Sequence record: EF437941
Reading direction: 5' to 3' (one strand)
DNA length: 64,000 nt
Source: Escherichia phage Phi1
How positions within the stretch are numbered: position 1 is the first letter of the stretch; every line of letters starts with the position of its first letter. This document shows positions 20,321-58,420 of this stretch, piece after piece. Under the pieces are notes generated by a model. That model saw only the letters and a list, made by a program, of their open reading frames with translations, made no database searches and was not told the DNA's origin. The translations under genes and the position numbers were made by a program.

Positions 20321-20641
20321 TTAGTCCTCACTTATAAGGTCAAACCAATTGTTTTTCGCATAATGCTTAATGCGTGCTTGATCTGCTTCCGCTGGTGATA
20401 GATTCCATGCAACCACTACAACTTCTGACGCATCGTCATCCGTTTCTGATACCCAATGATTGTGATTCATACAGTTATTTGCTATCGAGTGAGCAAATGA
20501 TTTCATCACTGGAGACGTATAATCATAGTAACGGATTTTCAGATTTTCATCAACATACAAATAGATCGTATAAGGTTTATATTCAGTAACCAGTAACAGA
20601 CAGTTACGCAATTCTGGGAAAATCTTTTTAGTTAATTTCAT
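20321..20641 (-). CDS. H-x-H-W family small protein (member 3)
   Basis: NHNHW ... VVVVAW..SPAEAD motif. Confidence 0.45.
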   Translation of the reverse strand: MKLTKKIFPELRNCLLLVTEYKPYTIYLYVDENLKIRYYDYTSPVMKSFAHSIANNCMNHNHWVSETDDDASEVVVVAWNLSPAEADQARIKHYAKNNWFDLISED

Positions 20642-20843
20642 ATTCTAGTTCTCCGTAATACACGGTAATCCATTTTTCTTCATACTTTGTATCTTTCCAA
20701 CACACAATACCGTTTACTGTGCAATCTTTGGAATTGACGAATGATTCATATTGTTCCGCATCTTCCATCATTTCATGAGCGGTCTTTTCATCGAATATAT
20801 CGCAGATCGCTTTATATGCTCGATAATCTTTAAATTTGCTCAT
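20628..20843 (-). CDS. Small hypothetical protein, paralog of 20846..21055
   Basis: MSKFKDYRAY... shares its N-terminus and a cysteine pattern with the adjacent gene. Confidence 0.45.
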   Translation of the reverse strand: MSKFKDYRAYKAICDIFDEKTAHEMMEDAEQYESFVNSKDCTVNGIVCWKDTKYEEKWITVYYGELEYEIN

Positions 20844-20845
20844 AA

Positions 20846-21055
20846 TTAACACCACTCAAGAGTTTTTGAAAACACATCTATCCATTGTTGAGTATATGCG
20901 GTTTCTTTCCATGATACAATACCAGTCGAATAATGGTTTTTGTTTCCAGAAAAGGACGGGCATTTTGATGCATCTTCCATCATCTTTTCGGCGAACTCTG
21001 GTTCGTATACTCGCAAGATCTGTTGATATGCTTTATAATCTTTAAACTTACTCAT
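20846..21055 (-). CDS. Small hypothetical protein, paralog of 20628..20843
   Basis: MSKFKDYKAY...; tandem duplicate. Confidence 0.45.
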   Translation of the reverse strand: MSKFKDYKAYQQILRVYEPEFAEKMMEDASKCPSFSGNKNHYSTGIVSWKETAYTQQWIDVFSKTLEWC

Positions 21056-21336
21056 AACAACACCACCGATACATCGTAATCATTCGCGGCCTTATCGGCT
21101 TCTTCAACCGACATAATACCTTCTGCGACAATTGGCATAGGGTGATCGTGATTCCACCAATGGTCATGTATATCAATTTCAGTTTTGCCGGAAAATGAAT
21201 CATGTTTGACGTTTTTCACTTTATACCCGATGTGACCGTCGTGGTCAATAAAGATATAGTTTCCGAAAATCGGTGTCTGTAAAATCATACCGAAAAATTT
21301 TTCTTTGTTGTTCGGGTCGAGTGTAATCATTTTCAT
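21052..21336 (-). CDS. H-x-H-W family small protein (member 4)
   Basis: IHDHWWNHDHP ... motif. Confidence 0.45.
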   Translation of the reverse strand: MKMITLDPNNKEKFFGMILQTPIFGNYIFIDHDGHIGYKVKNVKHDSFSGKTEIDIHDHWWNHDHPMPIVAEGIMSVEEADKAANDYDVSVVLL

Positions 21337-39120: not shown

Positions 39121-39149
39121 ATTATACACTGTTGCGTTACGCTGTCAAC
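39121..39149 (-). promoter_or_regulatory. Early promoter cassette (TTGACA-N16-TATAAT)
   Basis: Conserved -35, -10 and leader. Confidence 0.55.
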
Positions 39150-40519
39150 TCTTTTTCAAAAGATTTTACGATATACATGATAGTGCTCAATTCAGACGGC
39201 GCTACTGTTTCTGTGTAGCCATCCGGCATATCTTCTTTTGATATATAGGAAGTTTTATCTTTCATTGCTTCCTTGATCTTGTTCTCTAAGTCTAAGATCT
39301 TTTGACCGTCTTGTAAAGTCAATTCATAAAAGATCTCGTGATCGAACTTAGAAACACGAGATTGGTTTCTCATTCGTTCTTGTGTTGTTAAATTGGTTAT
39401 TCCAAACTTAACTGCCGTTAACGATTTATGTTTGTTTAGTTTCTGTACATAAAATGTTCCAGGTTTTATAGGTTGATAGCCCATTTTAGAACATTTTCTG
39501 CATCTTGTTCCAGATTGTACAAATTTACTATATGTTGGTGTATACTCATGACCCATTTCACATGTAATTTTTAATCTTGTTTCGACCCCAGAATAGCTAC
39601 CTCCACAAAATCCGTGAAATTTATTATTACCCAACACGGAAATTATATTTTTTATTGCATCGTCTTCGTTCCTGCGACCACTACATACTCCACATCTATA
39701 TCCACCATGAAAAAAATCACTAAACGCAATATTGTACTCGTGTCCATTATTACACGTCATATTAAGTCTCGTCCTTATATTTTCGTATTTTCCACCAACA
39801 AATCCATTGAAAATATGGTCTCCTTTGACCGAATTAATTCTATCTAACGCGGTAGTTTCTGTTAAACGCTTGGTCCCGCAGCATTCTGGGCATCTAGTTC
39901 CTTGAATAAAATGACCATACGTTGGTTGATATATGTGTCCATTATTACACTCTATTATTAACTTTGTTTTATGTGCACCAATGTAAGCACCACCAACAAA
40001 TCCATGAAATTTTTCATCGACCAGTGCGTTGATGATATTTTGTATAGCTTCATCATTCGATTTTTTGTGTTTATTATTGCAAATTGGACATGTATTGACA
40101 CCACCAATTATGCTGGAATAACATCTATGGTATTCGTGACCGTGTTCTTTACATTTTAATATAATTTTAGATGTCGATACATTTTTAAACTCTTCTGTCG
40201 TGAAACCCATAAACTCGCTATCTGTTAATGAAGATTTGATATCATCAATAACTTGTTCGGTTGATTTCTTTGCATTGGGTGCGCATAAACCACACTTGGT
40301 TTTTCTTCCAACTAGTGTTTTAATAGTTTTTGTGTGTGTTGTGTGTCCTTTATCGCACATTATACATACCCTTGTATCACATCCTTTCCAATCATCAACA
40401 AACCCGAGAAATTTGTAATTTATAGAGTGACAATATTCGCGTACTGTATTCTCGTGAATTGTCGGTTGTTTTTGTCTCTTACCAACGCAAATGTCCTTAG
40501 CAAAGTATGTTTTCATCAT
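39137..40519 (-). CDS. Five-fold zinc-finger repeat protein with T5orf172 (GIY-YIG-like) C-terminal domain
   Basis: Five repeats of roughly F.GF.GG.Y...(T/R)L...C..GH.Y...(F)..G..C..C; C-terminus GTFYVQK...AVKFGIT resembles T5orf172; start at the internal Met with GGAGGA RBS. Confidence 0.5.
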   Translation of the reverse strand: MMKTYFAKDICVGKRQKQPTIHENTVREYCHSINYKFLGFVDDWKGCDTRVCIMCDKGHTTHTKTIKTLVGRKTKCGLCAPNAKKSTEQVIDDIKSSLTDSEFMGFTTEEFKNVSTSKIILKCKEHGHEYHRCYSSIIGGVNTCPICNNKHKKSNDEAIQNIINALVDEKFHGFVGGAYIGAHKTKLIIECNNGHIYQPTYGHFIQGTRCPECCGTKRLTETTALDRINSVKGDHIFNGFVGGKYENIRTRLNMTCNNGHEYNIAFSDFFHGGYRCGVCSGRRNEDDAIKNIISVLGNNKFHGFCGGSYSGVETRLKITCEMGHEYTPTYSKFVQSGTRCRKCSKMGYQPIKPGTFYVQKLNKHKSLTAVKFGITNLTTQERMRNQSRVSKFDHEIFYELTLQDGQKILDLENKIKEAMKDKTSYISKEDMPDGYTETVAPSELSTIMYIVKSFEKELTA

Positions 40520-40546
40520 TTTTATCCTCCGTTGTTCGATGTGTGC

Positions 40547-40575
40547 ATGATACATGACCACATAAGCATGTCAAC
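40547..40575 (-). promoter_or_regulatory. Early promoter-like element (TTGACA with weak -10)
   Basis: -35 well conserved; -10 degenerate (TATCAT). Confidence 0.35.
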
Positions 40576-40636: not shown

Positions 40637-41605
40637 TTACATCGCTAACAGAGAGTCCAGGTCATCCAGATCAGAAGCGGAGGAAGTACCGCCACCCAGA
40701 TCCAGCGATGCCATCAGGTCATCAGCGGAAGAATCTAACGCCGTGCTAGCTGCGTTAATACCAACTACAGTGCTAGCTGCGGTAATACCAGCGTCGAATG
40801 CATTCATCTGTGCGTCAAAATCATCAAGCTGGCTGTTAATCGCTGCCGCAGCACTGGAAGCCGCAGCACCAGCTACCATAGACACACCCATAGTTTTCTT
40901 AAATTTGGTTTCCAGTTCATCGAACGGTTTAAACTGGCTAGGCGCTACAATCTCACTCAGATCAACCATGTTTTCCATCAGGTATTTCTGATATGCTTCG
41001 TCTTCAATCTTCGGAAGCTGTGATTGCTGCATGACACGAGAATCATCATAGTTGTGGTGTATATCAACCTTCTTAGCTTTCAGGACGAAGTTAGCGCCAG
41101 AGAACACACAAGTTACATCTACCGGAACTTGGCCCATATCGGTATTCACGTTCACCATTGCAACGATCTTATCATAAATTTTCTGACCGAAGCGGAATTT
41201 GAATACCTTACCTTCATTTTCTGGTGCTTGAGGATCTTTCAGTACCAGAATATTTGCGTAGTAGGACGCTTTACGCTTAATCAGTTGCCATTCGGTTTTA
41301 TCGGTATTGTATAGGTCTTTTTCGTTAATATATTTGCACACAGGGCAAGAATCAAAATCACCGTGGGTGCTTGAGCAGTTTTCCCAATACCATTTGCCAT
41401 TAACTTTGAAGGAATGGTTTACCAGTTTCACAATCGGCAGACCGTCTTCTGTCTTAGACGGCAGGAAGCGAATCAGGGCTTCACCGTTACCTGCTGCATC
41501 AGTCTTAATCTTCCACTCTTTCGGATCTTCTTTGGAGAAACCGTTGCCACCTTTCAGTGCGGCCAGTTGAGCTTGCAGTTTGGAGCTATCTTGACGTTTA
41601 AACAT
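40637..41605 (-). CDS. 32: Single-stranded DNA-binding protein gp32
   Basis: Strong match to T4 gp32 (IRFLPSK, zinc site [10 protein letters not shown], acidic Ser/Asp-rich C-terminal tail). Confidence 0.95.
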
Positions 41606-41641
41606 ATTCACTATTCCTTCTTTTGATTAATTTACTAGACT

Positions 41642-41670
41642 ATTATACAGATTTAAATTTACTTGTCAAC
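41642..41670 (-). promoter_or_regulatory. Sigma70-like promoter upstream of gene 32 (TTGACA-N16-TATAAT)
   Basis: Consensus hexamers about 35 nt upstream of the gp32 ATG. Confidence 0.5.
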
Positions 41671-42346
41671 TATTTGTTTCGGCTTTTAATTGAGATATTT
41701 CTTTACACTCTTTAACTACTTTAACAAATAATGCTCTTGCTTTTGCGGCGTCAATAACAAGTAGTTTCTTGTACGCCTTCATTTTAACACTATAAGTTTG
41801 CCAAATCAAGTCTTTGGCTACCTTGTCGTGTTCGTCGATTATATTTAGAAAGCTATCTAACAACATAAACGACTCAAACGATATAATCCGATTTTGCAGT
41901 AGTTTAAATATACCGCTAGTTTCGGTTGCGGGATTGTATGTAATTAGCTCTTTAAGAGTAACCCCGCGTTTCTCGGAGAAGTATACCAGACTTTTAATGT
42001 CATCGTCAAATCTTGTTGCTGCATCGGTTATCTTTCCTATGTATTCCATATAAAAGCCGTATGCGTCAACATCAGTGATTTCACCTACCCATGCATCGGT
42101 ATTAGCTACCAGATTGCTTAGGAATAGGAAGTATAATTCTCTTAGATTGTACTTTTCCGCTAATTTTGCGAAATAATACTTATCTCTGCGTTTATTGAAT
42201 GCGGCATCAGACAACCGCATCCTCCAATTGTATTTTACGCAATCATAACGCCCGTTCATGTGAGCTTTCATCATGCAATATAACATATACACAGATTTAG
42301 CATTAATTCGCATATCTGGATCTGGAGGAAGACGGTTTCTGATCAT
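41666..42346 (-). CDS. 59: Helicase loader gp59
   Basis: Extensive similarity to T4 gp59 (KSVYMLY, NWRMRLSDAAFNKRRDKYYF, SNLVANTDAW). Confidence 0.9.
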   Translation of the reverse strand: MIRNRLPPDPDMRINAKSVYMLYCMMKAHMNGRYDCVKYNWRMRLSDAAFNKRRDKYYFAKLAEKYNLRELYFLFLSNLVANTDAWVGEITDVDAYGFYMEYIGKITDAATRFDDDIKSLVYFSEKRGVTLKELITYNPATETSGIFKLLQNRIISFESFMLLDSFLNIIDEHDKVAKDLIWQTYSVKMKAYKKLLVIDAAKARALFVKVVKECKEISQLKAETNS

Positions 42347-42355
42347 ACATACCCC

Positions 42356-42625
42356 TTAAATATCGAGAGTGTTGGTCGGTTCGTCGATCACTCCCTTCCT
42401 GAGCGTTCTATTTACTATACATTCTTGTGTGATCTTGTCAATAATGGACACCGGAATATACTTCTGATAGTGACCATATTCTATAGAGTTTTCCTCTACA
42501 AACTGAGTTGTCGCTTCAAGATAAGTCAATCCCTCTTCAACAACCAATTTTTCGATTGCAAGACCGTTTGCTGTTTTGTTCGCGGCTTTTACCGCATGTT
42601 CATTAAGCATTGAACACCCGATCAT
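42356..42625 (-). CDS. 33: Late transcription accessory protein gp33
   Basis: YLEATTQFVEENSI block matches T4 gp33; conserved position. Confidence 0.75.
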   Translation of the reverse strand: MIGCSMLNEHAVKAANKTANGLAIEKLVVEEGLTYLEATTQFVEENSIEYGHYQKYIPVSIIDKITQECIVNRTLRKGVIDEPTNTLDI

Positions 42626-42878
42626 AGAGTTCTACCGCTTCGTCGCGTTCTGCTTCGAAGGTTTCGCGCTGTTGCTGGTGATACAGTTTAAACAGAATGC
42701 CCCACATTTTACCATCTACGCCTAATTCTTCTTTAGCACGCTGTTTGATCTCTTTGATCTTATCGCCATATGCTTCTTGAATGGTTTTCTGATCGCTGGC
42801 TTCTTTAATCAGTTGTGCCAGGGTATTTCCGTGCACTGCTTCGTCAAATACTACTTTTTCTTTTTTCTGTTCAGTCAT
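42603..42878 (-). CDS. dsbA: dsDNA-binding protein DsbA
   Basis: 91 aa with VFDEAVHG ... AKEELGVDGKM ... VELYDRVF, similar to T4 DsbA. Confidence 0.75.
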   Translation of the reverse strand: MTEQKKEKVVFDEAVHGNTLAQLIKEASDQKTIQEAYGDKIKEIKQRAKEELGVDGKMWGILFKLYHQQQRETFEAERDEAVELYDRVFNA

Positions 42879-42882
42879 AATA

Positions 42883-43482
42883 TTAACCCTCTTTAGTCAT
42901 TAATTGAAAACCACGTTCAGCTTTTGAGATTTCGCTAGGACTTAAATCGTCACCCACATATTCTAGCATCATTTCTCGGATAATGTCAAGTGCTTTTTCA
43001 TCACCTGATTTTAACTCGAACTCAAGTTCATAATGAGCAGTGTCGCCCAATCCTTCGCCTACTTTGCCATAATAGAAAGTGTCTTTGCACATTTCCACTA
43101 TACCACAACCCATATCTAGAGTCAATGACTTTCGATATGTCATTACTTGCATTATTGTAGTGATATAGTCGGAGTTTACCCCTAGACTATCAATAAAATG
43201 GACGAACTCATCCCAGTTTGAAAATGTCATTTCATCGCGGTTGAATAGTCCAGATTCATTATCACCCATTTTGATCATGATCTCTGATTTTCTACAGTCA
43301 AGTCGTGCATAAATTCCTTTTTGACGTAGAGCATGATCTTCGGTATCATAATAAAATTCGTGTTTTAATATGTTATCTCGATCGACGATATTATAACCGT
43401 CATACATTGCCACCCACAAATCACAGATGGTTTCGACGCCAATTTGTGAGTGTGCATAGTATTTTAACTCAAGTTCTTTCAT
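42883..43482 (-). CDS. CYTH-like (triphosphate tunnel metalloenzyme / class IV adenylate cyclase-like) protein
   Basis: N-terminal E-x-E-x-K (MKELELKYY) and C-terminal acidic HYELEFELK motifs at ~200 aa fit the CYTH pattern; by-eye assignment. Confidence 0.4.
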   Translation of the reverse strand: MKELELKYYAHSQIGVETICDLWVAMYDGYNIVDRDNILKHEFYYDTEDHALRQKGIYARLDCRKSEIMIKMGDNESGLFNRDEMTFSNWDEFVHFIDSLGVNSDYITTIMQVMTYRKSLTLDMGCGIVEMCKDTFYYGKVGEGLGDTAHYELEFELKSGDEKALDIIREMMLEYVGDDLSPSEISKAERGFQLMTKEG

Positions 43483-43492
43483 GTGTCAACCC

Positions 43493-44437
43493 TTAGAACT
43501 CACCAATTTTCTGCAACATTTTAACTAACGCATTTGTTACAAAATAGTTATAAATTTTACCGCGTGGTGCTGGTTTAGATTTTTCCCATGACTCAAGAAT
43601 CTGATTCTGAATATCATCTGGGATGTAATCGAAGTCAATAAGTTCGCGGTTTTCGTCAAAACGTCGTGCTTCTTCTTCTGTCATCAAAGACTTTGGATCT
43701 TCGGCATCGAAAATTTGCTCTAACCATTTGGTTGCAACTGGTTTAGCTCGTTCCCCTTCCAGTCTAGAGATAATGAAATCACTACGACACTTGACAGAAG
43801 CCACACCGTCTTTTGCGTCACCCTTAACACATTTTACCATAAGGTCTTTGTAAGGGCTACCATATTTGCATTTCTTCCATGCTTTCTGTACTGGCGCCCA
43901 CTGTTTCACGTTTTTGTATTTGTGCAACTGCGTGTAGTCACCATCACCTGAGTTGATCAGCACCTGGCGACCTTCTACAGAAAACTTTTTAGTTAATACA
44001 GCGATTATATCATCTGCTTCAACTTTGTCAACCTTAATAACGTGATAAGGCATGTTCTCTTTAAACTCTTCGGTGATCTTATTGATCGCAGCAAAGATCA
44101 TCTCCCAATCACGCGGATCTGCGTCTCGTTTTTCCTTACGGTTGCGTTTATAGTAAGGGGCGATATCACGTCGCCAGTAACCTTTGCTTGAATCAAAAGC
44201 AAGCACCGTAATAGGGTATTGCTCTTTGAATTTTGTCATATTATAACGCATGGTGTCAAGAATAAGATGACGGATCATGCCTTCATTAATAGATCTCCGG
44301 TTAAAGGTATGCGAGATAGTCGCAATCATAAGCTGCGACATATCAATCAAATGCACACCTTCCGGCAGTTTATCTTCTGGATCATCGAAGAAATCATTAA
44401 GTGTAGCGGTAGTTTTTGTAAACGGGTTATACGTCAT
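43493..44437 (-). CDS. rnh: RNase H / flap endonuclease
   Basis: Similarity to T4 RNase H (GDAKDGVASVKCRSDF, PRGKIYNYF). Confidence 0.9.
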   Translation of the reverse strand: MTYNPFTKTTATLNDFFDDPEDKLPEGVHLIDMSQLMIATISHTFNRRSINEGMIRHLILDTMRYNMTKFKEQYPITVLAFDSSKGYWRRDIAPYYKRNRKEKRDADPRDWEMIFAAINKITEEFKENMPYHVIKVDKVEADDIIAVLTKKFSVEGRQVLINSGDGDYTQLHKYKNVKQWAPVQKAWKKCKYGSPYKDLMVKCVKGDAKDGVASVKCRSDFIISRLEGERAKPVATKWLEQIFDAEDPKSLMTEEEARRFDENRELIDFDYIPDDIQNQILESWEKSKPAPRGKIYNYFVTNALVKMLQKIGEF

Positions 44438-44622
44438 ATAGTTCTCTCCACTCTCACAACAACATATTCTCCAAACGAGTTAGATACTTCACGATCATAC
44501 CCGTATTTCTCCATAACTCGCAGAATTGCATTGTTTAATTCGGCGCGGAAATAATTGTAATCCTTATCAGGGATTCTGTCAACTACCCATTTTGCACCGT
44601 CTGACAAATCAACTTTAACCAT
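44434..44622 (-). CDS. Small hypothetical protein
   Basis: 62 aa ORF overlapping the rnh start by 4 nt. Confidence 0.4.
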   Translation of the reverse strand: MVKVDLSDGAKWVVDRIPDKDYNYFRAELNNAILRVMEKYGYDREVSNSFGEYVVVRVERTI

Positions 44623-44658
44623 AATATATCATCCTCTTTGTTTCTATCAAGCCTTATT

Positions 44659-44666
44659 TATAAATA
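44659..44666 (+). promoter_or_regulatory. T4-type late promoter box TATAAATA upstream of gene 34
   Basis: Exact TATAAATA about 30 nt upstream of the gp34 ATG. Confidence 0.65.
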
Positions 44667-44694
44667 TGATCATACTATAAAAGGAGACCCAATA

Positions 44695-47600
44695 ATGGCA
44701 GATTTTTCTCAACATTTCAAGGCCACATTTGGCTTTGACGCTGGTAATGAAAAGGTCGTCAATGTAGCATTGGCTGATAAGAATGTCAACACCGATGCGG
44801 TCAACGTTGAATTTTTCAATTACCATAATGGTATTACTCAGTATGACACAACTCGCGGTTATGATCAATACGGAACTACAATCTATCAAAACCGTCCGTA
44901 TTATGCAAAAGAAGATATCACAAAGCCAGCAGGTGATTTTGACCCGACTAAATGGCAAGCACTGCGCACGGACCCACGTTGGGATTATATTGCAGCAACT
45001 TCCGGTGATACTCCTTTACAGTCTGGTGATTATATCGCAGCAGATGGTCAATTTGCAAACTTGACTTTCTCTATGCCAACTAAACCAGCAGAGGGAGACA
45101 CTATAACAGTAAAAGATATCGGTGGCAAGTGTGGTGTTAACGAATTATCGTTCTTGAGTTCAGGACATGAGTTTTACCATAACGGTAATGTGTATAACCG
45201 AAAATGGTATTGTACTACCCCGTATGCAATGAACTATTTCATCTTTGTTCGTAATCGTTGGCATGTTTATCAGACAGGAACAGAGCCACGCGGTGTGTAC
45301 GCACAGCCAGCGATTGATGCTATTCAAATGCAGAATGGTGATCAGGTATTTCGTCGTAGTTCATTGGGTAATATTACCTTAGTGCTTCCTAAGTTTGCCA
45401 ACAATGGCGACATGATCCAGACTACAGACCTTGACGGATTAACCGCAACCAACCACGTTACGGTTAAAGTTCATGAGCACGCAGAAGAACAATCAATTGG
45501 CACGTCCGGTCTAAAAGAGATTATCGGTAAGCGTAGCGGTCATGGTGTATTCATCTTTGACAAGACGGAAAACTTATGGCGTTTGTGGGATGGTGATCAG
45601 TCTGTTCGTCTTAAACCGATCATCGATGACACTCGCTTGCAACCTAATAGCTATGTTGCTGTATTTGGTGATCGTGATGTTACTCTGACGCTGCCGACCA
45701 ATGTCGAGCCGGGTGATCGTATTCAAGTTTCTATGCAGTATATGCACGGAAACCAGAATTGCCGTATTATCACCGCCACAGAGGATACAAAAATCCTTAT
45801 GTCGAAAAACATGGTTCAGTTGCCGAAGCGTAGCGAGTACCCATTCAATGGGACCGATACATGGAAGGAAGTGTCTGAATTGTCGTTCAATGCGGCTAGT
45901 GATTATGTACCTTATCTGGAGTTCTCTTATTCAGAAGGTGATGATGGTAAGAAACATTGGCTGGTAGCACACTCTCATCCGATCGTCGAACGAGTAGACC
46001 CTACTCGTAAAGAGCGTGTGGGTGTAATTGCACTGGCTACCCAAACTGAAACGAATAAAAACCATGAAGAGAATCCTAGCGACGAAGTTGCAGTAACACC
46101 AAAAATGCTGGCTAATAAAACCGCCAACGAAACTCGACGCGGTATTGCTCGCATTGCGACTCAAGCGGAAACGCATCAAGATACTGGTTCTAACTTCCTG
46201 GATGATGTTATCGTTACGCCTAAAAAGTTAAATGACTGTGTTGCTACCGAAGCCCGTCGTGGTGTGATGGAAATTGCAACCCAGCACGAAACCAATGAAG
46301 GTTTAGACGATACCCGCGCTATTACTCCTAAGAAATTAGAAGAACGTCGCGCTTCCGAAGATCTCGCTGGTATTGCTGAAATTGTTCAGGTTGGCGGTAG
46401 TGCTGCCGCTCGACGCGGCGAAGCTGGTACAGGGATCTATAACATCAATGACCATGCTAAAATTGTTACGCCAAAAAACATCAACGAAGTCAAGGCGACC
46501 GAAACTTCCCGTGGTGTTGGCTATCTGGCAACTGACGCGGAAGTGCAAGGGGCTACAGAATCAACCCCGCAAGATGCTTTACTAATCACGACTCGCACGC
46601 TAACGAAACGTACTGCTACCGAATCGCGCACTGGTATCGCTGAAATTGCAACTCAGGAAGAAACAAACTTAGGTCAAAGTGATAACCATATCATCACGCC
46701 TAAAAAGCTGCATACTCGCCGTGCAACGGAAACTTTACACGGTTTAGCAGAAATTGCAACTCAGCCGGAATTTGACGCAGGTCTTGACGATGCTCGCATT
46801 TCTACCCCATTGAAGATTAAAACCTTCTTTGAGAATGCACAGCGTTTGAAAGTAGATCCGACTCAGGGGCTTAACCTTACTGGTGATTTGTGGCAAGGTA
46901 TCATGATCCGCGGTCTGGACGCAACCGAAGACACAAAAGGTGTCGCTAAAGTTGCTACTACTCAGCTTACGGATGCTGGTCAAGATGATACTACAATCAT
47001 CACGCCTAAAAAGCTGCAAGGCAAAAAGGCCACAGAAGGTAAAGAAGGTATTATCCGAGTTGGTACTCAAGCCGAAACCGTGGCTGGTACACTGGCTAAT
47101 GTAGCAATTTCTCCGAAGAACTTCAAATATGTTGTTCAGACAGAGGATACATGGAAAGCAACCGAAGCGCGTCGTGGATTCTTGAAAGTTGCTACTCAGG
47201 AAAACTGTTTTGTTGGTGATAATCTGCAAGGTTCTACTCAAGAACTAGGAAACTACCAGCATGACGGAATTGCTGTTACCCCGAAAGGATTAAACTACGC
47301 ACTTGCTAATTTCTTACCTAAGATGGCAACCGCTCAGAATAGTTTGAAATTAGGTAACGTAGAGGCCGCTAAATGGGCGCGTAGAGACATTGACCAGACC
47401 ATAGAGAGCAATTACACGTTTAATAAAAACGTTAACGTGAAGGGCGATTTAGAGTGCTTAAAATCAGGTTCCTTTGAAACTCTGTATGTGACTAAGAACT
47501 CTACTGATGATCCGAGTAATGGTCATCTGGTGTTGGGTGAGCGTGGAGTTGACGGTCACACCGGAATTACTCTGCATGGCACAACCGCATCGGAAGGCAT

Positions 47601-51372: not shown

Positions 51373-54315
51373 ATGGCAGATTTAAGCAGAATCCAATTTA
51401 AACGCACTAGCACTAAAGGTCGTAAACCTGATGCTAGTACGATGAATCCGGGGGAATTGGCAATCAACCTTGCGGATCAATATCTTCTTACTAAAAATGA
51501 TTCCGGTGCTATTATCAATTTAAGTTGTCCTCCGGTTTATGACCGCGATGTTACAATGGCGGGTAAGGTTAAAGGTAATAATTATATCTTAAGTAAAACC
51601 GCCAACTATCTGGAAGATCAGACAGCGCGAGATCTTAATTACTTTGGTGCTTTCCGAACTAATGGACAAGATGGTCTTTTAGATCTAACTCTTAATGTTC
51701 CTCATTCTGCTGGCGTTAATCATGGTCGAGGATTTACTTTCCGTTATGCGACTGGCGGATCTCGTGTTGAAACCTATGGGTATAATGCACAGGGACAAAA
51801 AGCATTTAGCTATAAAATGTATCATGAAGGTGATAAACCTACCCCATCGGAATTGAACGTTTATAGCAAACAAGAAGTTGACCGTATGTTTGTTAAAACC
51901 GTTAAACTTGCTACAGTTCCTGTTGATATCGTTGACGGTTATTTTAAATTAGCAACTGCAATGATTCCGCAAAACGGTCGTAGTGTATTTTTCCGTATTC
52001 ATGGTGGTAACGGATATAACGTTACTGCATACGATCAAGTTGATATTGTAGAAATTGTTATTCGCAGTGGAAATAATCGTCCTAAAGGTGTTAACGTTAT
52101 TGCATACCGCCGAAATACAAACAAAGCATTTGATGTTTTGGCTGTTAATACTTCGGGTGATAACTATGATATCTACGTGAAATATCAGCGTTACACTGAT
52201 AACGTTATTGTTGAATTTGGTAAAAGTGTTGATGTTGATCTGGTGGTTCATGACGTTCCAGACTTTGTTGTTGATCGTCCTGTTGGCGATAATGTTATTG
52301 GCGGTCGCGCGGTAACTCTTTTCAACACCGAAAACAAACGAGGTGTGTTGAGTTTTGACGATAACACACAAAATAGTTATGATATTGTTCACTTGAGTAA
52401 TGATAGGGGTACTGGACGGAAATATATTCGTAAATTCCGTAGCAACTATAACGAAATGATCTGGCATGAGACGGTTCAAGGTTCTACTTATCGACTCGCC
52501 ACGGGTAGTACAGATGCCCAGGAGATTCTATCCGTTGAATCTAGTAGCTCTATTGCTGGGACTCATAAAGGTAATATTCTTTCTGGTCGAATGATGTTGG
52601 GTGGTGGTAGTAATGTTATTACCTTGCGGCGTCCTGCTGGTCAATCCAACCATATTACGTTTCAAGATAATCGGACTGGATCTATTACCCGTCAAGGGTG
52701 GATCGGTTATGGTAATGCTGATACTAACGTTTTTGAATGGTATAGTGATGTGGGTGGTAGTTCTATTCGTCACCACATCGACGGACAGATCGAATTTCAG
52801 ACAGGTAACACAAAACGAGTTTATACTAACGCTCAATTCATCTCAATGAATAGCGACGCCTACCGAATGCTCTACGGTAATTACGGTGCATTCTGGCGTA
52901 ATGACGGCGTTAAAGTTTATCTTCTTTCTACTGCCGAAAATGATAAATTGGGCGGGTGGAATGCCTATCGTCCATTCATTTATGATTTAACTTCCGGTAA
53001 CGTTCAATTAGGCGGTGATGGTAACGAAGATGCATTAACGTTAGAACGTGCTTCTCGTGCCGCTCGATTTAGTAATGACGTTTACATTAAGAAAGGGCAT
53101 TTGACTTTCGACGCTGGGCGATTAAATTCCCGCGATTATTTCCGGTTTAACCATTGGGGTGATAGCAATAACGCGCGTGATAACATCTTACAGCTTGACG
53201 ATAGCATGGGTGCACACTTCACCACTGAACGTACTTTAGCAACTGGTGCAATTAAAACTAAATTCTTCGGTAATTTGGAATCTGCTGGTCAAATTAAATG
53301 GGGTAAAGGGACCGCCACATCTACGTTTACTCTACGTGTATGGGGTAGCGATAGCCGTAAACAAATATTTGAATGCGGCGATGAAAGCGGGTGGCATTGG
53401 TATACCCAACGCGCGGGCGGTCCGGATACTTCTGCAATTGAGTTTGCCATCAACGGTACTCTTAGGCCGCAAGCAATTACCACTGGCGGTAATATTATTT
53501 TGGGCGGTTCTGATATTGATTTTCGTCGCACTGGTAATAAGCATATCTGGTTTAGAGATCCGAACGGTTTAGAGTTAGGCTTGATGTACTGCGATGATGC
53601 TGGTGTTATTCGCTTCCGTGGTCAGAAACAAGCTCAGGCGTGGAAATTTGCAGATAAAATGATCCAGTTGGAATCTGGCACTGTATCCGGTGGCGGTAAT
53701 GGCCTGATTCGTGGTGAAGTTGCTGGCGGTAGTTGGGCTAGCTGGCGTGACCGTCCTGCTGGTCTTATGGTTGGGTGTCCTCAATCCGTTGACTCGGCAC
53801 ATAACGTATGGAAAGCGACGCATTGGGGTAAATATCACATTGCAGCAATGGGTGTACATGTTCCTAGTGGTACTATTACCAATGCTTTAGCTCGCCTAAA
53901 CGTTCATGACGCCAACTTTGACTTTAGCGCCTCCGGTGATATGACGATAGGTCGTAACGGTTCGTTTAACGATGTTTACATTCGTTCTGATGCTCGCCTT
54001 AAAATCAATAAGGAAGAGTATAAAGAGAATGCCACAGATAAAGTTAATCGCTTGACGGTATACACCTATGACAAGGTTAAATCTTTAACCGACCGTACTG
54101 TCATTGCTCATGAAGTTGGTATTATTGCTCAGGATCTTGAAAAAGAATTGCCGGAAGCCGTAACAACTTCTAAGATCGGCGACCCAGATAATCCAGAAGA
54201 GATCTTAACAATTTCTAACTCTGCTGTCAACGCTCTTTTAATTAAGGCGTTTCAGGAAATGAGCGAAGAATTGAAAGCCGTTAAAGCTGAACTAGCGGAA
54301 CTTAAAAAGAATTAA
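51373..54315 (+). CDS. 37: Long tail fibre distal subunit gp37 with C-terminal intramolecular-chaperone-like domain
   Basis: N-terminus IQFKRTS...PGELAINL matches T4 gp37; C-terminal ~110 aa (SDARLKINKEEYKE...AVKAELAELKKN) resembles self-cleaving intramolecular chaperone domains of other tail fibres. Confidence 0.85.
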   Translation: MADLSRIQFKRTSTKGRKPDASTMNPGELAINLADQYLLTKNDSGAIINLSCPPVYDRDVTMAGKVKGNNYILSKTANYLEDQTARDLNYFGAFRTNGQDGLLDLTLNVPHSAGVNHGRGFTFRYATGGSRVETYGYNAQGQKAFSYKMYHEGDKPTPSELNVYSKQEVDRMFVKTVKLATVPVDIVDGYFKLATAMIPQNGRSVFFRIHGGNGYNVTAYDQVDIVEIVIRSGNNRPKGVNVIAYRRNTNKAFDVLAVNTSGDNYDIYVKYQRYTDNVIVEFGKSVDVDLVVHDVPDFVVDRPVGDNVIGGRAVTLFNTENKRGVLSFDDNTQNSYDIVHLSNDRGTGRKYIRKFRSNYNEMIWHETVQGSTYRLATGSTDAQEILSVESSSSIAGTHKGNILSGRMMLGGGSNVITLRRPAGQSNHITFQDNRTGSITRQGWIGYGNADTNVFEWYSDVGGSSIRHHIDGQIEFQTGNTKRVYTNAQFISMNSDAYRMLYGNYGAFWRNDGVKVYLLSTAENDKLGGWNAYRPFIYDLTSGNVQLGGDGNEDALTLERASRAARFSNDVYIKKGHLTFDAGRLNSRDYFRFNHWGDSNNARDNILQLDDSMGAHFTTERTLATGAIKTKFFGNLESAGQIKWGKGTATSTFTLRVWGSDSRKQIFECGDESGWHWYTQRAGGPDTSAIEFAINGTLRPQAITTGGNIILGGSDIDFRRTGNKHIWFRDPNGLELGLMYCDDAGVIRFRGQKQAQAWKFADKMIQLESGTVSGGGNGLIRGEVAGGSWASWRDRPAGLMVGCPQSVDSAHNVWKATHWGKYHIAAMGVHVPSGTITNALARLNVHDANFDFSASGDMTIGRNGSFNDVYIRSDARLKINKEEYKENATDKVNRLTVYTYDKVKSLTDRTVIAHEVGIIAQDLEKELPEAVTTSKIGDPDNPEEILTISNSAVNALLIKAFQEMSEELKAVKAELAELKKN

Positions 54316-55325: not shown

Positions 55326-55569
55326 GACGCATAGAAGCCCCTGAATCACATTTTGACGCTGTATGATGAAAACAGGTAGCGTACCAGTCATCGGCTTGTT
55401 TGTCTTCGTCAGAAAACGCGTAATTTCGTTGTATGCCGTTTTCTACTTTGACCAGTGCAATGGCTGTTTCTGGAAGATCGATCAATCGTACAAAATCACC
55501 ATCTTCCCACTCTACACGAGCAATATCATAACCCATCTCAAAATAAACAATCGCTTGTTCTAATTTCAT
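55321..55569 (-). CDS. Small hypothetical protein
   Basis: 82 aa ORF; no recognisable similarity to AsiA. Confidence 0.4.
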   Translation of the reverse strand: MKLEQAIVYFEMGYDIARVEWEDGDFVRLIDLPETAIALVKVENGIQRNYAFSDEDKQADDWYATCFHHTASKCDSGASMRQ

Positions 55570-55889
55570 TCTGGAAACTTCCCGTAAACATTCTCTGCTA
55601 ATTTACGTGCATCTTTTACAATATCTTTCATGTAATGACTATAATTTTTAGCTAGATCAATGATGCAATCAACAAAGAAGTAATAGCGTCGCAGTGCTAC
55701 CAGCTCAACATCTTCAAGATGACCATTTTCTCCAATCGCTGAAATATGTTTAAATTCCTTTCGGATCGCGTCCATCGCGACATTAACTTCTTTTATAATA
55801 TCTTTCGTATTATATGCACCTCGACTAATCAAAATTTTGGTTAGGTCTTCTGCTTTTTCGTGAAAGTTGTCAATTTCAAACTCGATCAT
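55566..55889 (-). CDS. Hypothetical protein, paralog of 56004..56336
   Basis: Shared C-terminal block ...(K/R)(L/I).(A/T)EN(V/I)(Y/F)GKF. Confidence 0.45.
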   Translation of the reverse strand: MIEFEIDNFHEKAEDLTKILISRGAYNTKDIIKEVNVAMDAIRKEFKHISAIGENGHLEDVELVALRRYYFFVDCIIDLAKNYSHYMKDIVKDARKLAENVYGKFPE

Positions 55890-56003
55890 AATAACCTCTC
55901 ATAATTTCACGCTGTTGTGTCAACATTTTTTCGTGGTTTGCTAATTCTATACATTGTAATAGCATAACCAGTGCAATTTTCAATGATTCATCATCTTTCA
56001 TAA

Positions 56004-56336
56004 TCAAAATTTACCGAAAATATTCTCTGTCATAATTCTTGCTTCGTCGATTATTTTCGTCATGTTCATGGTGTAGTTATGATCATTTAGTGCTTTAATG
56101 ACAACGAGCAAGGAATCTAAAAACACTCGATACCGGGTATATTCTACGCTATTTGTGAATACCGATGTTTTCTCTACTTTATCGATCAGATAGCCTAAAA
56201 CCGATAGCGCCTCGTTTACTTCCCTTGTTACTTTATCGGCGCTAAACAACACCGGATAAAGACGCGGTGTGATTAACCGCGCTGCCTCTTTCAATTCTGT
56301 CGCTTTCCATGATTCATATTTGTCATAATTAAACAT
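56004..56336 (-). CDS. Hypothetical protein, paralog of 55566..55889
   Basis: 110 aa with the same C-terminal block. Confidence 0.45.
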   Translation of the reverse strand: MFNYDKYESWKATELKEAARLITPRLYPVLFSADKVTREVNEALSVLGYLIDKVEKTSVFTNSVEYTRYRVFLDSLLVVIKALNDHNYTMNMTKIIDEARIMTENIFGKF

Positions 56337-57274: not shown

Positions 57275-57355
57275 GTCAACAACTTATTTTCGGTTGTACT
57301 TGTCAACAACTTATTTTCGGTTGTACTTGTCAACAACTTATTTTCGGTTGTACTT
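57275..57355. repeat. Perfect 3 x 27-bp direct tandem repeat
   Basis: GTCAACAACTTATTTTCGGTTGTACTT three times; on the minus strand each unit is AAGTACAACCGAAAATAAGTTGTTGAC. Confidence 0.9.
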
Positions 57356-57619
57356 CTGCCACTTTCGGTAATACTGCTTGTAATATTGTTTAATGTTTGG
57401 TGGTTCGTCACTATACATGTTATCAACCATCATGTCAATAAGACCTTCCGGTGTTTGATAGTTACCCGCTCGAATGAGTTCCTTAATCAAAAGATCTTGT
57501 GTCGCTTTATACTTGACAATAACAACTGTCTTTTCTGCCTTTCCAATTCCGATCCGGTCGTTAGCTCTCATAGCATCCCACCAATCTTTTTTAAACTTCA
57601 TGTTGTTAAATTTCATCAT
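57338..57619 (-). CDS. Basic hypothetical protein whose 3-prime end lies in the tandem repeat
   Basis: 93 aa; the C-terminal KYNRK and stop codon are encoded by the first repeat unit encountered on the minus strand. Confidence 0.45.
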   Translation of the reverse strand: MMKFNNMKFKKDWWDAMRANDRIGIGKAEKTVVIVKYKATQDLLIKELIRAGNYQTPEGLIDMMVDNMYSDEPPNIKQYYKQYYRKWQKYNRK

Positions 57620-58420
57620 TTAACCCTTCTTATATTCGCAAACATATTGAGTACCATAATCATAGCTAATGCGACCTTTCTCGATTACTTCAAAGCGGAT
57701 TTCATCGTTTTCCCCTACCCACATTTTGTACTCGTTGAAGTATCCTGCTACATCCGGTTTGCTCATACCAACAACCATATTTTTATATTGTTTGCTGTGT
57801 GTCAGATTTGATTTAAACACTTCGCGCTCATCAACATATACGAAAGAAGACAATTCACCTTCGGTCATGGTCATTTTCAGCTTGCCGCCCTTGTTGCCAT
57901 AAGTAGAGTTGCCATACAATGGATCTTTGCGGCTGTCTGTTTCAATACCATCAATGATTTTCCATGTAAATTTTGCAATGCACTGATAAGTGATAGATCC
58001 AGAGATTTTCTCTTCTTTCTTCTGTTCTTCCACCACTTTTGCTTCGTGTTTCGGTTGTTCTTCTTCAACCTTCACAGAAGTCTCTGAATCGCTTTCTGAC
58101 GCGGTTTCTTCTTTAGGTAATACATTCATCAAGTTTTGGATTTGAGCGTTGTATACAGCCTCCAGTGGCTGAATCTGCCCGATATTGATCATTGTATCAC
58201 GAACAGTTTTATTCCAGTTGCGTTGCTCTTGTTTAAGAGACGGATCAATCTTAACAGCCTTAACATATACCTCATGAAGTTTAGAATCAAGTGCTGAGAT
58301 TGACTCATTAGCACAAATAAACTTCTCTGATTTGGTAGTAGCTTTAGCGCAATCAAAGGACGCAGCATTAGCACCGAAAGTAGTAGCAGAAAGAACGATA
58401 GCAGCGATAATGTTTTTCAT
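57620..58420 (-). CDS. Secreted DUF1311/LprI-like protein
   Basis: Signal peptide (MKNIIAAIVLSATTFGANA), then FDCAKA...E.FIC...LD..L...Y...EQR.W pattern, an acidic linker and a C-terminal domain. Confidence 0.45.
   Translation of the reverse strand: MKNIIAAIVLSATTFGANAASFDCAKATTKSEKFICANESISALDSKLHEVYVKAVKIDPSLKQEQRNWNKTVRDTMINIGQIQPLEAVYNAQIQNLMNVLPKEETASESDSETSVKVEEEQPKHEAKVVEEQKKEEKISGSITYQCIAKFTWKIIDGIETDSRKDPLYGNSTYGNKGGKLKMTMTEGELSSFVYVDEREVFKSNLTHSKQYKNMVVGMSKPDVAGYFNEYKMWVGENDEIRFEVIEKGRISYDYGTQYVCEYKKG

Follow-up and report, generated by a model that had tools for sequence, protein, structure and literature searches.

The closest described counterpart of the gene product considered here is YgiF of Escherichia coli, an enzyme of the CYTH family of triphosphate tunnel metalloenzymes (TTM). 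Specific hydrolysis of inorganic triphosphate (PPPi) has been shown for YgiF only, the physiological substrate of which has been doubted (PMC3440374). Martinez et al. 2015 (PMC4641920) showed that in YgiF the metal bound to the substrate (site 1) is coordinated by Glu-160 and the catalytic, water-activating metal (site 2) by Glu-4, Glu-6 and Glu-162, that catalysis needs Arg-56, and that Lys-69 aids substrate binding. The same study found that mutation of the second arginine neighbouring the catalytic one, tested as Arg-54 of AtTTM3, leaves catalysis unimpaired. In phages, CYTH triphosphatases are scattered among the jumbo phages, where they may degrade unwanted nucleoside triphosphates (Iyer et al. 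2021, PMC7824862), and RB49ORF244c of phage RB49 was listed by Nolan et al. 2006 (PMC1524935) with a Pfam CYTH match (E 0.0026). The RefSeq note on this RB49 gene, RB49p245, reads 'similar to P45267, P30871, HI1598, ygiF'. The subject of the present analysis is its ortholog in Escherichia phage Phi1, located in a stretch of 64,000 nucleotides (sequence record EF437941, hereafter the window) at 42883..43482 on the minus strand. This gene starts with ATG, has 199 codons, belongs to PHROG 14893 (labelled 'unknown function') and encodes a CYTH-family triphosphate tunnel enzyme.

The family assignment was published in 2006 and is not new as an annotation. New are the phage-specific replacement of an arginine by an aspartate in the tunnel, the deep conservation of the gene in its slot upstream of dsbA (down to 30% identity) and an ancient allelic cassette situated between the two catalytic strands.

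Family assignment and predicted fold

A sequence-only reading of the window had placed a CYTH-like triphosphate tunnel protein in the 32-59-33-dsbA-rnh replication cluster, and both the profile search and the structure prediction that it proposed as checks agree with it. The open reading frame (ORF) of 199 amino acids (aa) that it described between dsbA and rnh, with the start MKELELKYY (E3-x-E5-x-K7), was found exactly at 42883..43482 on the minus strand. Its second motif, HYELEFELK, is also present, at residues 150-158 in the predicted strand beta8, some 40 residues ahead of the C-terminus, not at the very end of the protein. The protein matches Pfam CYTH (PF01928) over residues 23-191 with 28.7 bits, above the gathering cut-off of 23.2 (E 1.4e-6), and most of its homologs carry precomputed PF01928 matches. 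The NCBIfam models gave no matches for the phage clade.

A search of the PDB with the single sequence yielded almost no matches. When a profile of 17 family members was used instead, the sole match at E<=0.01 was E. coli YgiF (inorganic triphosphatase, 5a60/5a61; E 4.3e-13), with the whole tunnel domain covered. The AlphaFold2 model built on the family alignment has a mean predicted local distance difference test score (pLDDT) of 93 and a predicted template modelling score (pTM) of 0.86, and shows eight long strands with interspersed helices and a C-terminal helix. The strands form a closed eight-stranded beta-barrel tunnel, which is predicted to be closed by a plug helix, as in the TTMs that act on small molecules. 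In a Foldseek comparison of this model with the PDB, YgiF came top (E 3.8e-12, template modelling (TM) score 0.73), followed exclusively by TTM/CYTH enzymes; class IV adenylate cyclase structures, at lower ranks, and Mediator Med18/20 were also among the fold matches.

A likeness to the TriTu immunity protein (PDB 7zhm_C, 87 aa), detected by phmmer at E 0.04 over residues 21-100, was taken as chance. It falls in a variable region and the family profile fails to reproduce it.

Catalytic residues and proposed mechanism

The residues of YgiF were mapped onto the phage protein through a HMMER profile alignment (the numbering of chain 5a60 equals the native YgiF numbering plus 2). The ExExK motif, codons 3-7 in strand beta1 (43462..43476, minus strand), aligns with Glu-4, Glu-6 and Lys-8 of YgiF, E3 and E5 being the equivalents of the site 2 ligands Glu-4 and Glu-6 and K7 standing at Lys-8. 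The HYELEFELK motif, codons 150-158 (43009..43035, minus strand), aligns with Glu-158, Glu-160 and Glu-162, which places E154 at the site 1 ligand Glu-160 and E156 at the site 2 ligand Glu-162. The catalytic Arg-56 corresponds to R60 and Lys-69 to K71, and R82, E84, R117, K187 and R190 are further conserved residues. Both motifs are invariant in all family alignments. Moreover, the mapped catalytic and conserved residues are invariant not only in the family alignment but also in one that includes relatives at 23-31% identity and, nearly without exception, in the 154 nearest CYTH relatives, E154, E156 and R60 being retained in 153-154 of them. Invariance of the metal ligands and of the catalytic arginine over so deep a divergence, while the rest of the protein varies, is a signature of retained catalysis.

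The distribution of the conserved positions follows the same line. The inward register of the eight strands was fixed by the invariant catalytic residues, the orientation of the other positions being that given by strand periodicity and not by coordinates. In this register, the phage clade shows no variation at 20 of the 45 positions that point into the lumen and at 3 of the 45 that point outward (Mann-Whitney p 1.3e-6). Such fixation of the lumen is what a functional tunnel enzyme should show. In our reading the lumen is under purifying selection and the exterior is either free to vary or selected to differ.

Judged from its sequence and predicted fold, the protein is probably a stand-alone YgiF-like two-metal triphosphohydrolase and not an adenylate cyclase. 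A triphosphate-bearing substrate would sit in the lumen of the eight-stranded beta-barrel, where one Mg2+ or Mn2+ ion would bridge the triphosphate to E154 (site 1) and E3, E5 and E156 would hold another metal, which would activate a water molecule for attack on the terminal phosphate. R60 would activate the beta-gamma bridge, K71, R82, R117, K187 and R190 would bind the phosphates, and the products would be inorganic phosphate and diphosphate.

The substrate strand of the phage clade

In the wider YgiF-like family, which comprises stand-alone proteins of about 200 aa and CYTH-CHAD proteins of about 500 aa, the substrate strand has the canonical form small-x-R-x-R (A-L-R-L/I-R), whereas the phage proteins have Y/V/I-A-R-x-D/N in its place. 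In phage Phi1 the strand reads Y-A-R-L-D (codons 58-62, strand beta3, 43297..43311, minus strand). Here R60 aligns with the catalytic Arg-56 of YgiF and D62 with Arg-58, the canonical second arginine, which has thus been replaced. Among the 154 nearest representatives, position 62 is Arg in 146 and His in one; Asp or Asn is found in seven, all of which are phage-slot proteins, and in none other.

The strand beside it is also peculiar to the phage clade. In K40-x-E42-x-Y44-x-D46 (codons 40-46, strand beta2, 43345..43365, minus strand), K40 and E42 are in inward register and clade-specific: K40 is invariant and position 42 is E or D among the phage proteins, whereas other relatives mostly have L/M/I and N/S/A at these two positions. 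In addition, the phage clade is without the two-residue insertion that precedes K71. The aromatic Y58 is found in the Krischvirus alleles and is replaced by Val or Ile in two divergent metagenomic members, P0045 and P0059. The residue at the equivalent position in thiamine triphosphatase, Trp-53, stacks the thiazole ring, and two arginines of that enzyme bind the beta and gamma phosphates (PMC4641920, PMC8233210).

The phage enzyme thus retains the chemistry, whereas the surface that its substrate touches is altered at one tunnel end. This is a hint, not proof, that its preferred substrate is unlike that of YgiF. By homology, the default substrate would be inorganic triphosphate or short polyphosphate. 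Given D62 with the co-varying K40/E42 and Y58, however, a different and possibly organic (nucleotide-like) triphosphate seems at least as likely as this inorganic default.

The locus and its conservation

The source phage belongs to the RB49-like Krischvirus group. Over 2.4 kb spanning the ORF it shows 90-97% identity to 57 phage records, among them those of RB49, JSE, GEC-3S and ECD7, and all 57 have the CYTH gene. Its upstream neighbour is rnh (43493-44437), which encodes the T4 RNase H / 5'-3' exonuclease (Pfam RNaseH_C 2e-39, also 5_3_exonuc_N), and its downstream neighbour is dsbA (42603-42878, ATG at 42876-42878; Pfam Phage_DsbA 5e-22). The genes for gp33 (42356-42625), gp59 (41666-42346) and gp32 (40637-41611), identified by strong Pfam/PHROG matches, come after it, and all of these genes are on the minus strand. 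The packing is tight. The spacer between the rnh stop and the CYTH ATG is 10 nt long and contains AAGGG, and the dsbA ATG begins 4 nt past the CYTH stop. The final sense codons of the CYTH gene, AAA GAG GGT (K-E-G), make up a Shine-Dalgarno-like sequence for dsbA, AAAGAGGG (42887..42894, minus strand), as read from the sequence.

In T4 the gap between rnh and dsbA is 8 bp with no gene in it, as the sequence-only reading had correctly noted. The junction is likewise annotated without an insert in Klebsiella phage KP15 (Slopekvirus), Aeromonas phage L9-6 (Biquartavirus), Proteus phage Pm5461 (Bragavirus) and Acinetobacter phage Acj61. Among the divergent relatives of the phage protein, the gene of P0043 (47% identity) is found in the order rnh-CYTH-dsbA-gp33, and those of P0045 (35%) and P0059 (30%) lie directly upstream of dsbA-gp33. 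The order CYTH-dsbA-gp33 is shared by the contigs L004, L011 and L012, and across the whole phage clade the CYTH gene has remained linked to dsbA. The occupation of the same slot in such divergent relatives, together with the absence of an insert from this junction in five other genera, indicates that the CYTH gene was gained once at the rnh-dsbA junction in an ancestor of the Krischvirus lineage and has since had a long residence there. A scan of IMG/VR with the clade alignment found three close relatives only, the divergent members having come from Logan/ENA contigs.

At the other end of the cluster, beside gene 32, there is an ORF of 474 aa (39137-40561, minus strand) with four CapR-homology repeats and matches to a treble-clef zinc finger (DUF4379). 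Its RB49 ortholog is labelled 'endonuclease', and the counterpart in Skers, 53% identical over partial length only, is labelled as a GIY-YIG nuclease. Between its genes 59 and 32, at the site of segG in T4, Skers carries an HNH homing endonuclease in addition. The region looks like a mobile-nuclease hotspot, and gene conversion could help to homogenise the dsbA-33-59 flank.

Allelic divergence of the CYTH gene

The protein of the window has 83% aa identity to that of RB49, whereas the neighbouring proteins (rnh, dsbA, gp33, gp59) have 98-100%. The corresponding values are 58% against 96-100% in the comparison with Skers, 58% against 95-100% with the metagenomic P0042 type, and 47% against 79-92% with contig L004 (P0043). 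As a control, the 86 ORFs of the window with counterparts in Skers were compared; their median protein identity is 97.5%, and only nine of them fall below 70%, namely the CYTH gene, the distal tail fibre gene (46%), the endonuclease-like ORF by gene 32 and six small ORFs of plastic regions.

The divergence is confined to an island. Nucleotide identity to Skers is 95-100% up to ~43460, falls to about 50% from there to ~43020, and is back at 100% over the last ~49 codons. The variable allelic core corresponds to codons 8-150 (43033..43461, minus strand), in which nucleotide identity to Skers is about 45-70%, against 95-100% in the flanks. The 3' segment, codons 151-199 and the stop (42883..43032, minus strand), encodes a helix and the plug helix (SKAERG) and behaves as conserved flank.

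Nei-Gojobori estimates were obtained for nonsynonymous (dN) and synonymous (dS) divergence and for the proportion of synonymous differences (pS). In the core, dS is 0.44 against RB49 and is saturated against Skers and P0042 (pS 0.72-0.76, with 0.76 for Skers), whereas the flanking genes have dS of 0.02-0.2; dN/dS is about 0.3 in the core and 0-0.13 in the neighbouring genes. The saturated dS with a dN/dS of about 0.3 means that the CYTH alleles are old and not fast-evolving, and rapid positive selection was accordingly rejected as the cause of the island. The cores of the window, Skers, P0042 and P0043 alleles are only 35-44% identical to each other. The first three are mutually as distant as they are from P0043, the allele of a phage whose flanking genes are ~80% identical.

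In codons 151-199, pS is 0 against RB49 and 0.10 against Skers (dS 0.11), like in dsbA and gp33. Since the synonymous sites are also identical, this segment belongs to the conserved flank. Constraint at the protein level was rejected as the main cause of the identity of the C-terminal 49 residues, because of this pS of 0 and because the segment shows normal divergence in L004.

The borders of the island coincide with the segments coding for beta1 ExExK and beta8 HYELEFELK, the two most conserved motifs, and these segments would offer homology for exchange between dissimilar alleles. Moreover, some metagenomic members (e.g. P0012 and P0026) look in the alignment like chimeras of the window and RB49 types. 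We read this as the maintenance of several ancient alleles, belonging to an accessory enzyme and shuffled among nearly identical genomes. This pattern resembles that of phage-host conflict loci and does not by itself prove conflict.

The distal long-tail-fibre gene (51373-54315, plus strand), with 46% identity to Skers against a background of ~97%, is a classic host-range cassette and was used as the comparator for the CYTH island. Six further ORFs, 31-65% identical to Skers amid near-identical neighbours, are additional islands of allelic divergence (20628, 21052, 55566, 56004, 57338 and 57620, within 20628-21336, 55566-56336 and 57338-58420, minus strand).

Putative promoters and predicted expression

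The early and replication genes run in the same direction as the CYTH gene. A perfect sigma-70 consensus, TTGACA-16-TATAAT with TG (12/12), lies inside rnh (44004..44031, minus strand), upstream of the CYTH gene and in the same orientation. A second site, TTGACA-18-TGcTAGAAT (11/12, with the extended -10 TG), is found in the 3' end of the CYTH gene (42960..42989, minus strand), some 80 nt ahead of where dsbA starts. Both are consensus matches only. The 3.3-kb region 41500-44800 contains 26 sigma-70-like sites against 11.3 +/- 3.4 expected. No copy of the T4-type late motif TATAAATA occurs in or beside the CYTH gene, the nearest copies being at 44655-44666. These data suggest early or continuous expression of the CYTH gene, and its transcription together with the early and replication genes is probable.

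A further sigma-70-like sequence, TTGACA-17-TAAAAT (11/12; 43461-43489, minus strand), has its -35 in the rnh-CYTH spacer and its -10 in codons 6-8 of the CYTH gene, and a transcript from it would begin within the gene. This match can be due to chance, or it may be part of the reason why the first codons are conserved at the nucleotide level. At 44655-44666 there are two overlapping TATAAATA late promoter motifs in opposite directions, one toward gene 34 and the other toward an ORF of 62 aa directly downstream (44434-44622, minus strand). This ORF is conserved, has no assigned function (PHROG 3594) and occupies the space between rnh and gene 34, sharing 4 nt with the start of rnh.

Alternative explanations

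Several points weigh against the assignment as a YgiF-like triphosphohydrolase. The substrate of a TTM superfamily member cannot be read from its sequence, and a literature search on phage CYTH proteins, triphosphate tunnels, anti-defence and Krischvirus found no functional (biochemical or genetic) study. The tunnel orientation of K40, E42, Y58 and D62 was deduced from strand periodicity and not from coordinates, D62 within the triphosphate-binding strand could reduce activity, and the promoters were called by consensus. Moreover, the CYTH gene of phage vB_EcoM_G2494 (MK327935.1; L017 401-996) has lost one base at codon ~59 and is annotated as two separate coding sequences, of 66 and 130 aa; either this phage can do without the gene on its host or the deposited record is in error. 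The 130-aa fragment has become a separate database entry (P0041; BFVD A0A482GBZ4).

An unlikely alternative is that the protein is a TTM hydrolase for anti-defence or host takeover, the substrate being a host immune messenger, a (p)ppGpp-type alarmone or a non-canonical deoxynucleoside triphosphate (dNTP), with an exterior that escapes host sensing or inhibition. The remodelling of the substrate strands (R to D/N, K40/E42, Y58) is phage-only, which would suit such a role. So would a fixed lumen under a variable surface, a gene context that fits early expression, and the presence of ancient alleles in near-identical genomes, as also seen in the window for the distal tail fibre and for a small number of ORFs in plastic regions. 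Nevertheless, the PADLOC defence models gave no match and no paper tying CYTH enzymes to anti-defence was found in the literature searched. The high dS speaks of old alleles and, with a dN/dS of about 0.3, gives no direct signal of positive selection; moreover, the allelic mosaic could be the outcome of neutral recombination at an accessory locus. In a more far-reaching version, which we consider quite unlikely, the proteins of the rnh-dsbA slot would be a distinct, phage-only TTM subfamily whose D/N62 and K40/E42 tunnel has been retargeted to a triphosphate-bearing nucleotide that the host makes during infection, be it an immune messenger, an alarmone or a non-canonical dNTP. Such proteins would amount to a new class of enzymatic counter-defence, and their surface would exist as ancient balanced alleles as hosts detect or inhibit it.

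It is distinctly improbable that the protein is an RNA 5'-triphosphatase converting pppRNA to ppRNA. Its targets could be transcripts of the host or of the phage, or else the pppApC-initiated lagging-strand primers, which the adjacent RNase H removes, and its activity would feed 5'-end-dependent decay or primer processing. Viral precedents of the TTM fold are known in the Cet1-like enzymes. However, the Pfam mRNA_triPase profile (PF02940) gave no match at E<=1, the structural likeness to the Cet1 branch is far below that to YgiF, which leaves these enzymes outside the closest structural neighbours, and the tunnel is predicted to be closed by its plug helix. In addition, the rnh-dsbA junction works without a CYTH gene in the five other genera.

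A non-catalytic tunnel protein that retains the ancestral fold and sequesters its ligand, either as a triphosphate 'sponge' or as a partner of replication or late-transcription proteins, is very improbable. The loss of the second arginine of the substrate strand and the tight linkage to dsbA/gp33 across the clade could be taken in its favour, and non-enzymatic proteins of TTM fold do exist, as exemplified by the Mediator Med18/20 match. Against this, every metal ligand and the catalytic arginine have been kept while the remainder of the protein varies.

The possibility, raised by the sequence-only reading, that the protein makes a nucleotide signal as a CyaB-type enzyme is contradicted by the data. 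Vogt et al. 2021 (PMC8233210) defined three sequence determinants of true class IV adenylate cyclases, and the phage protein fails in all of them. Only M1 and K2 precede E3, which makes impossible the HF motif required four residues before ExExK (HFxxxxExExK). The first arginine of the RxR strand, which in cyclases is a small neutral residue, is the invariant gate-keeper R60; and the second glutamate of the beta8 ExE, alanine in cyclases, is E156, a Glu in all members. The NCBIfam cyaB equivalog TIGR00318 gave no match at E<=0.01 with the protein of the window and four other clade members, and cyclase activity is undetectable in YgiF itself (PMC3440374). For these reasons the label 'adenylate cyclase' carried by three phage records (OR525698, OR352938, MK573636) is probably wrong, an annotation carry-over. 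The label 'inorganic triphosphatase' (MN894885, MN709127) is closer and is still putative. Despite these labels and the lower-ranked matches to class IV cyclase structures, we give hardly any credence to a class IV cyclase producing cyclic AMP.

Significance and comparison with known systems

The contribution of this analysis is mainly one of clean-up, as it confirms a family assignment twenty years old and finds that the spreading 'adenylate cyclase' label is very likely wrong. To this it adds a TTM clade that is specific to phages and marked by a defined change in the active site, a conserved position by late-transcription and replication genes, and an allele structure of the conflict type. 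The substrates of TTMs are notoriously hard to assign, and no physiological role has been accepted even for YgiF. Because an enzyme of a phage has only minutes after infection in which to act, it could point to a real in vivo triphosphate substrate. Should the substrate be a host signalling nucleotide, the protein would represent a new enzyme class in phage counter-defence; should it be PPPi or polyphosphate, the gene would be an ordinary auxiliary metabolic gene.

The class IV adenylate cyclases (CyaB of Aeromonas hydrophila and YpAC-IV; PDB 2fjt, 3n10) belong to the same superfamily and share with the phage protein the fold and a two-metal chemistry at the same tunnel centre. The Cet1-like and viral RNA triphosphatases (yeast Cet1 and those of mimivirus, vaccinia D1 and baculovirus LEF-4) have the TTM fold and an acidic-patch metal site 2. 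Thiamine triphosphatase (the mammalian 25-kDa ThTPase; PDB 3bhd, 5a64) has the fold and the ExExK and ExE motifs in common with the phage protein, whose Y58, in the Krischvirus alleles, stands at the position of Trp-53. Its W/YxRxR motif is matched by Y58 and R60 and broken at the second arginine, where the phage protein has Asp.

Other CYTH proteins of phages, such as Aeh1ORF004c, those of Aeromonas phages 65.2 and D3 and those of jumbo phages, are of unknown role and none of them was seen in the rnh-dsbA slot. The phage CYTH proteins found in BFVD are distant structural relatives only (Foldseek TM 0.35-0.5), which argues for separate acquisitions.

YgiF (PDB 5a60/5a61) has 433 aa and includes a CHAD domain, whereas the phage protein ends just past the plug helix and has no Pfam match to CHAD, the extension that the relatives of ~500 aa carry. 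The substrate strand of YgiF is G-L-R-I-R, in contrast to the Y-A-R-L-D of the phage protein, and hydrophobic and Asn/Ser residues of its neighbouring strand stand in place of K40/E42. Also unlike YgiF, the phage protein is missing the two-residue insertion before K71 and is encoded in the replication cluster of a virulent phage.

The nearest non-phage relatives in an exhaustive search are stand-alone bacterial YgiF-like CYTH proteins known from metagenomes (P0044, P0046). They have about 200 aa and the same motifs, are 24-31% identical to the phage protein and, unlike it, retain the canonical A-x-R-x-R strand. A cluster look-up of the closest cellular relatives returned no names. The gene of P0044, the closest canonical stand-alone relative (L015 3597-4187, contig SRR14597287_160264), is bacterial and divergently adjoins genes for a PhoU-like regulator and a PHO4-family phosphate transporter. 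It is followed by a gene for an RsmD-like methyltransferase. This neighbourhood as a whole is a possible clue to the role of the stand-alone YgiF-like enzymes. The context of P0044 fits a phosphate or polyphosphate role for the canonical branch, whereas the phage gene stands outside any such phosphate-metabolism context.

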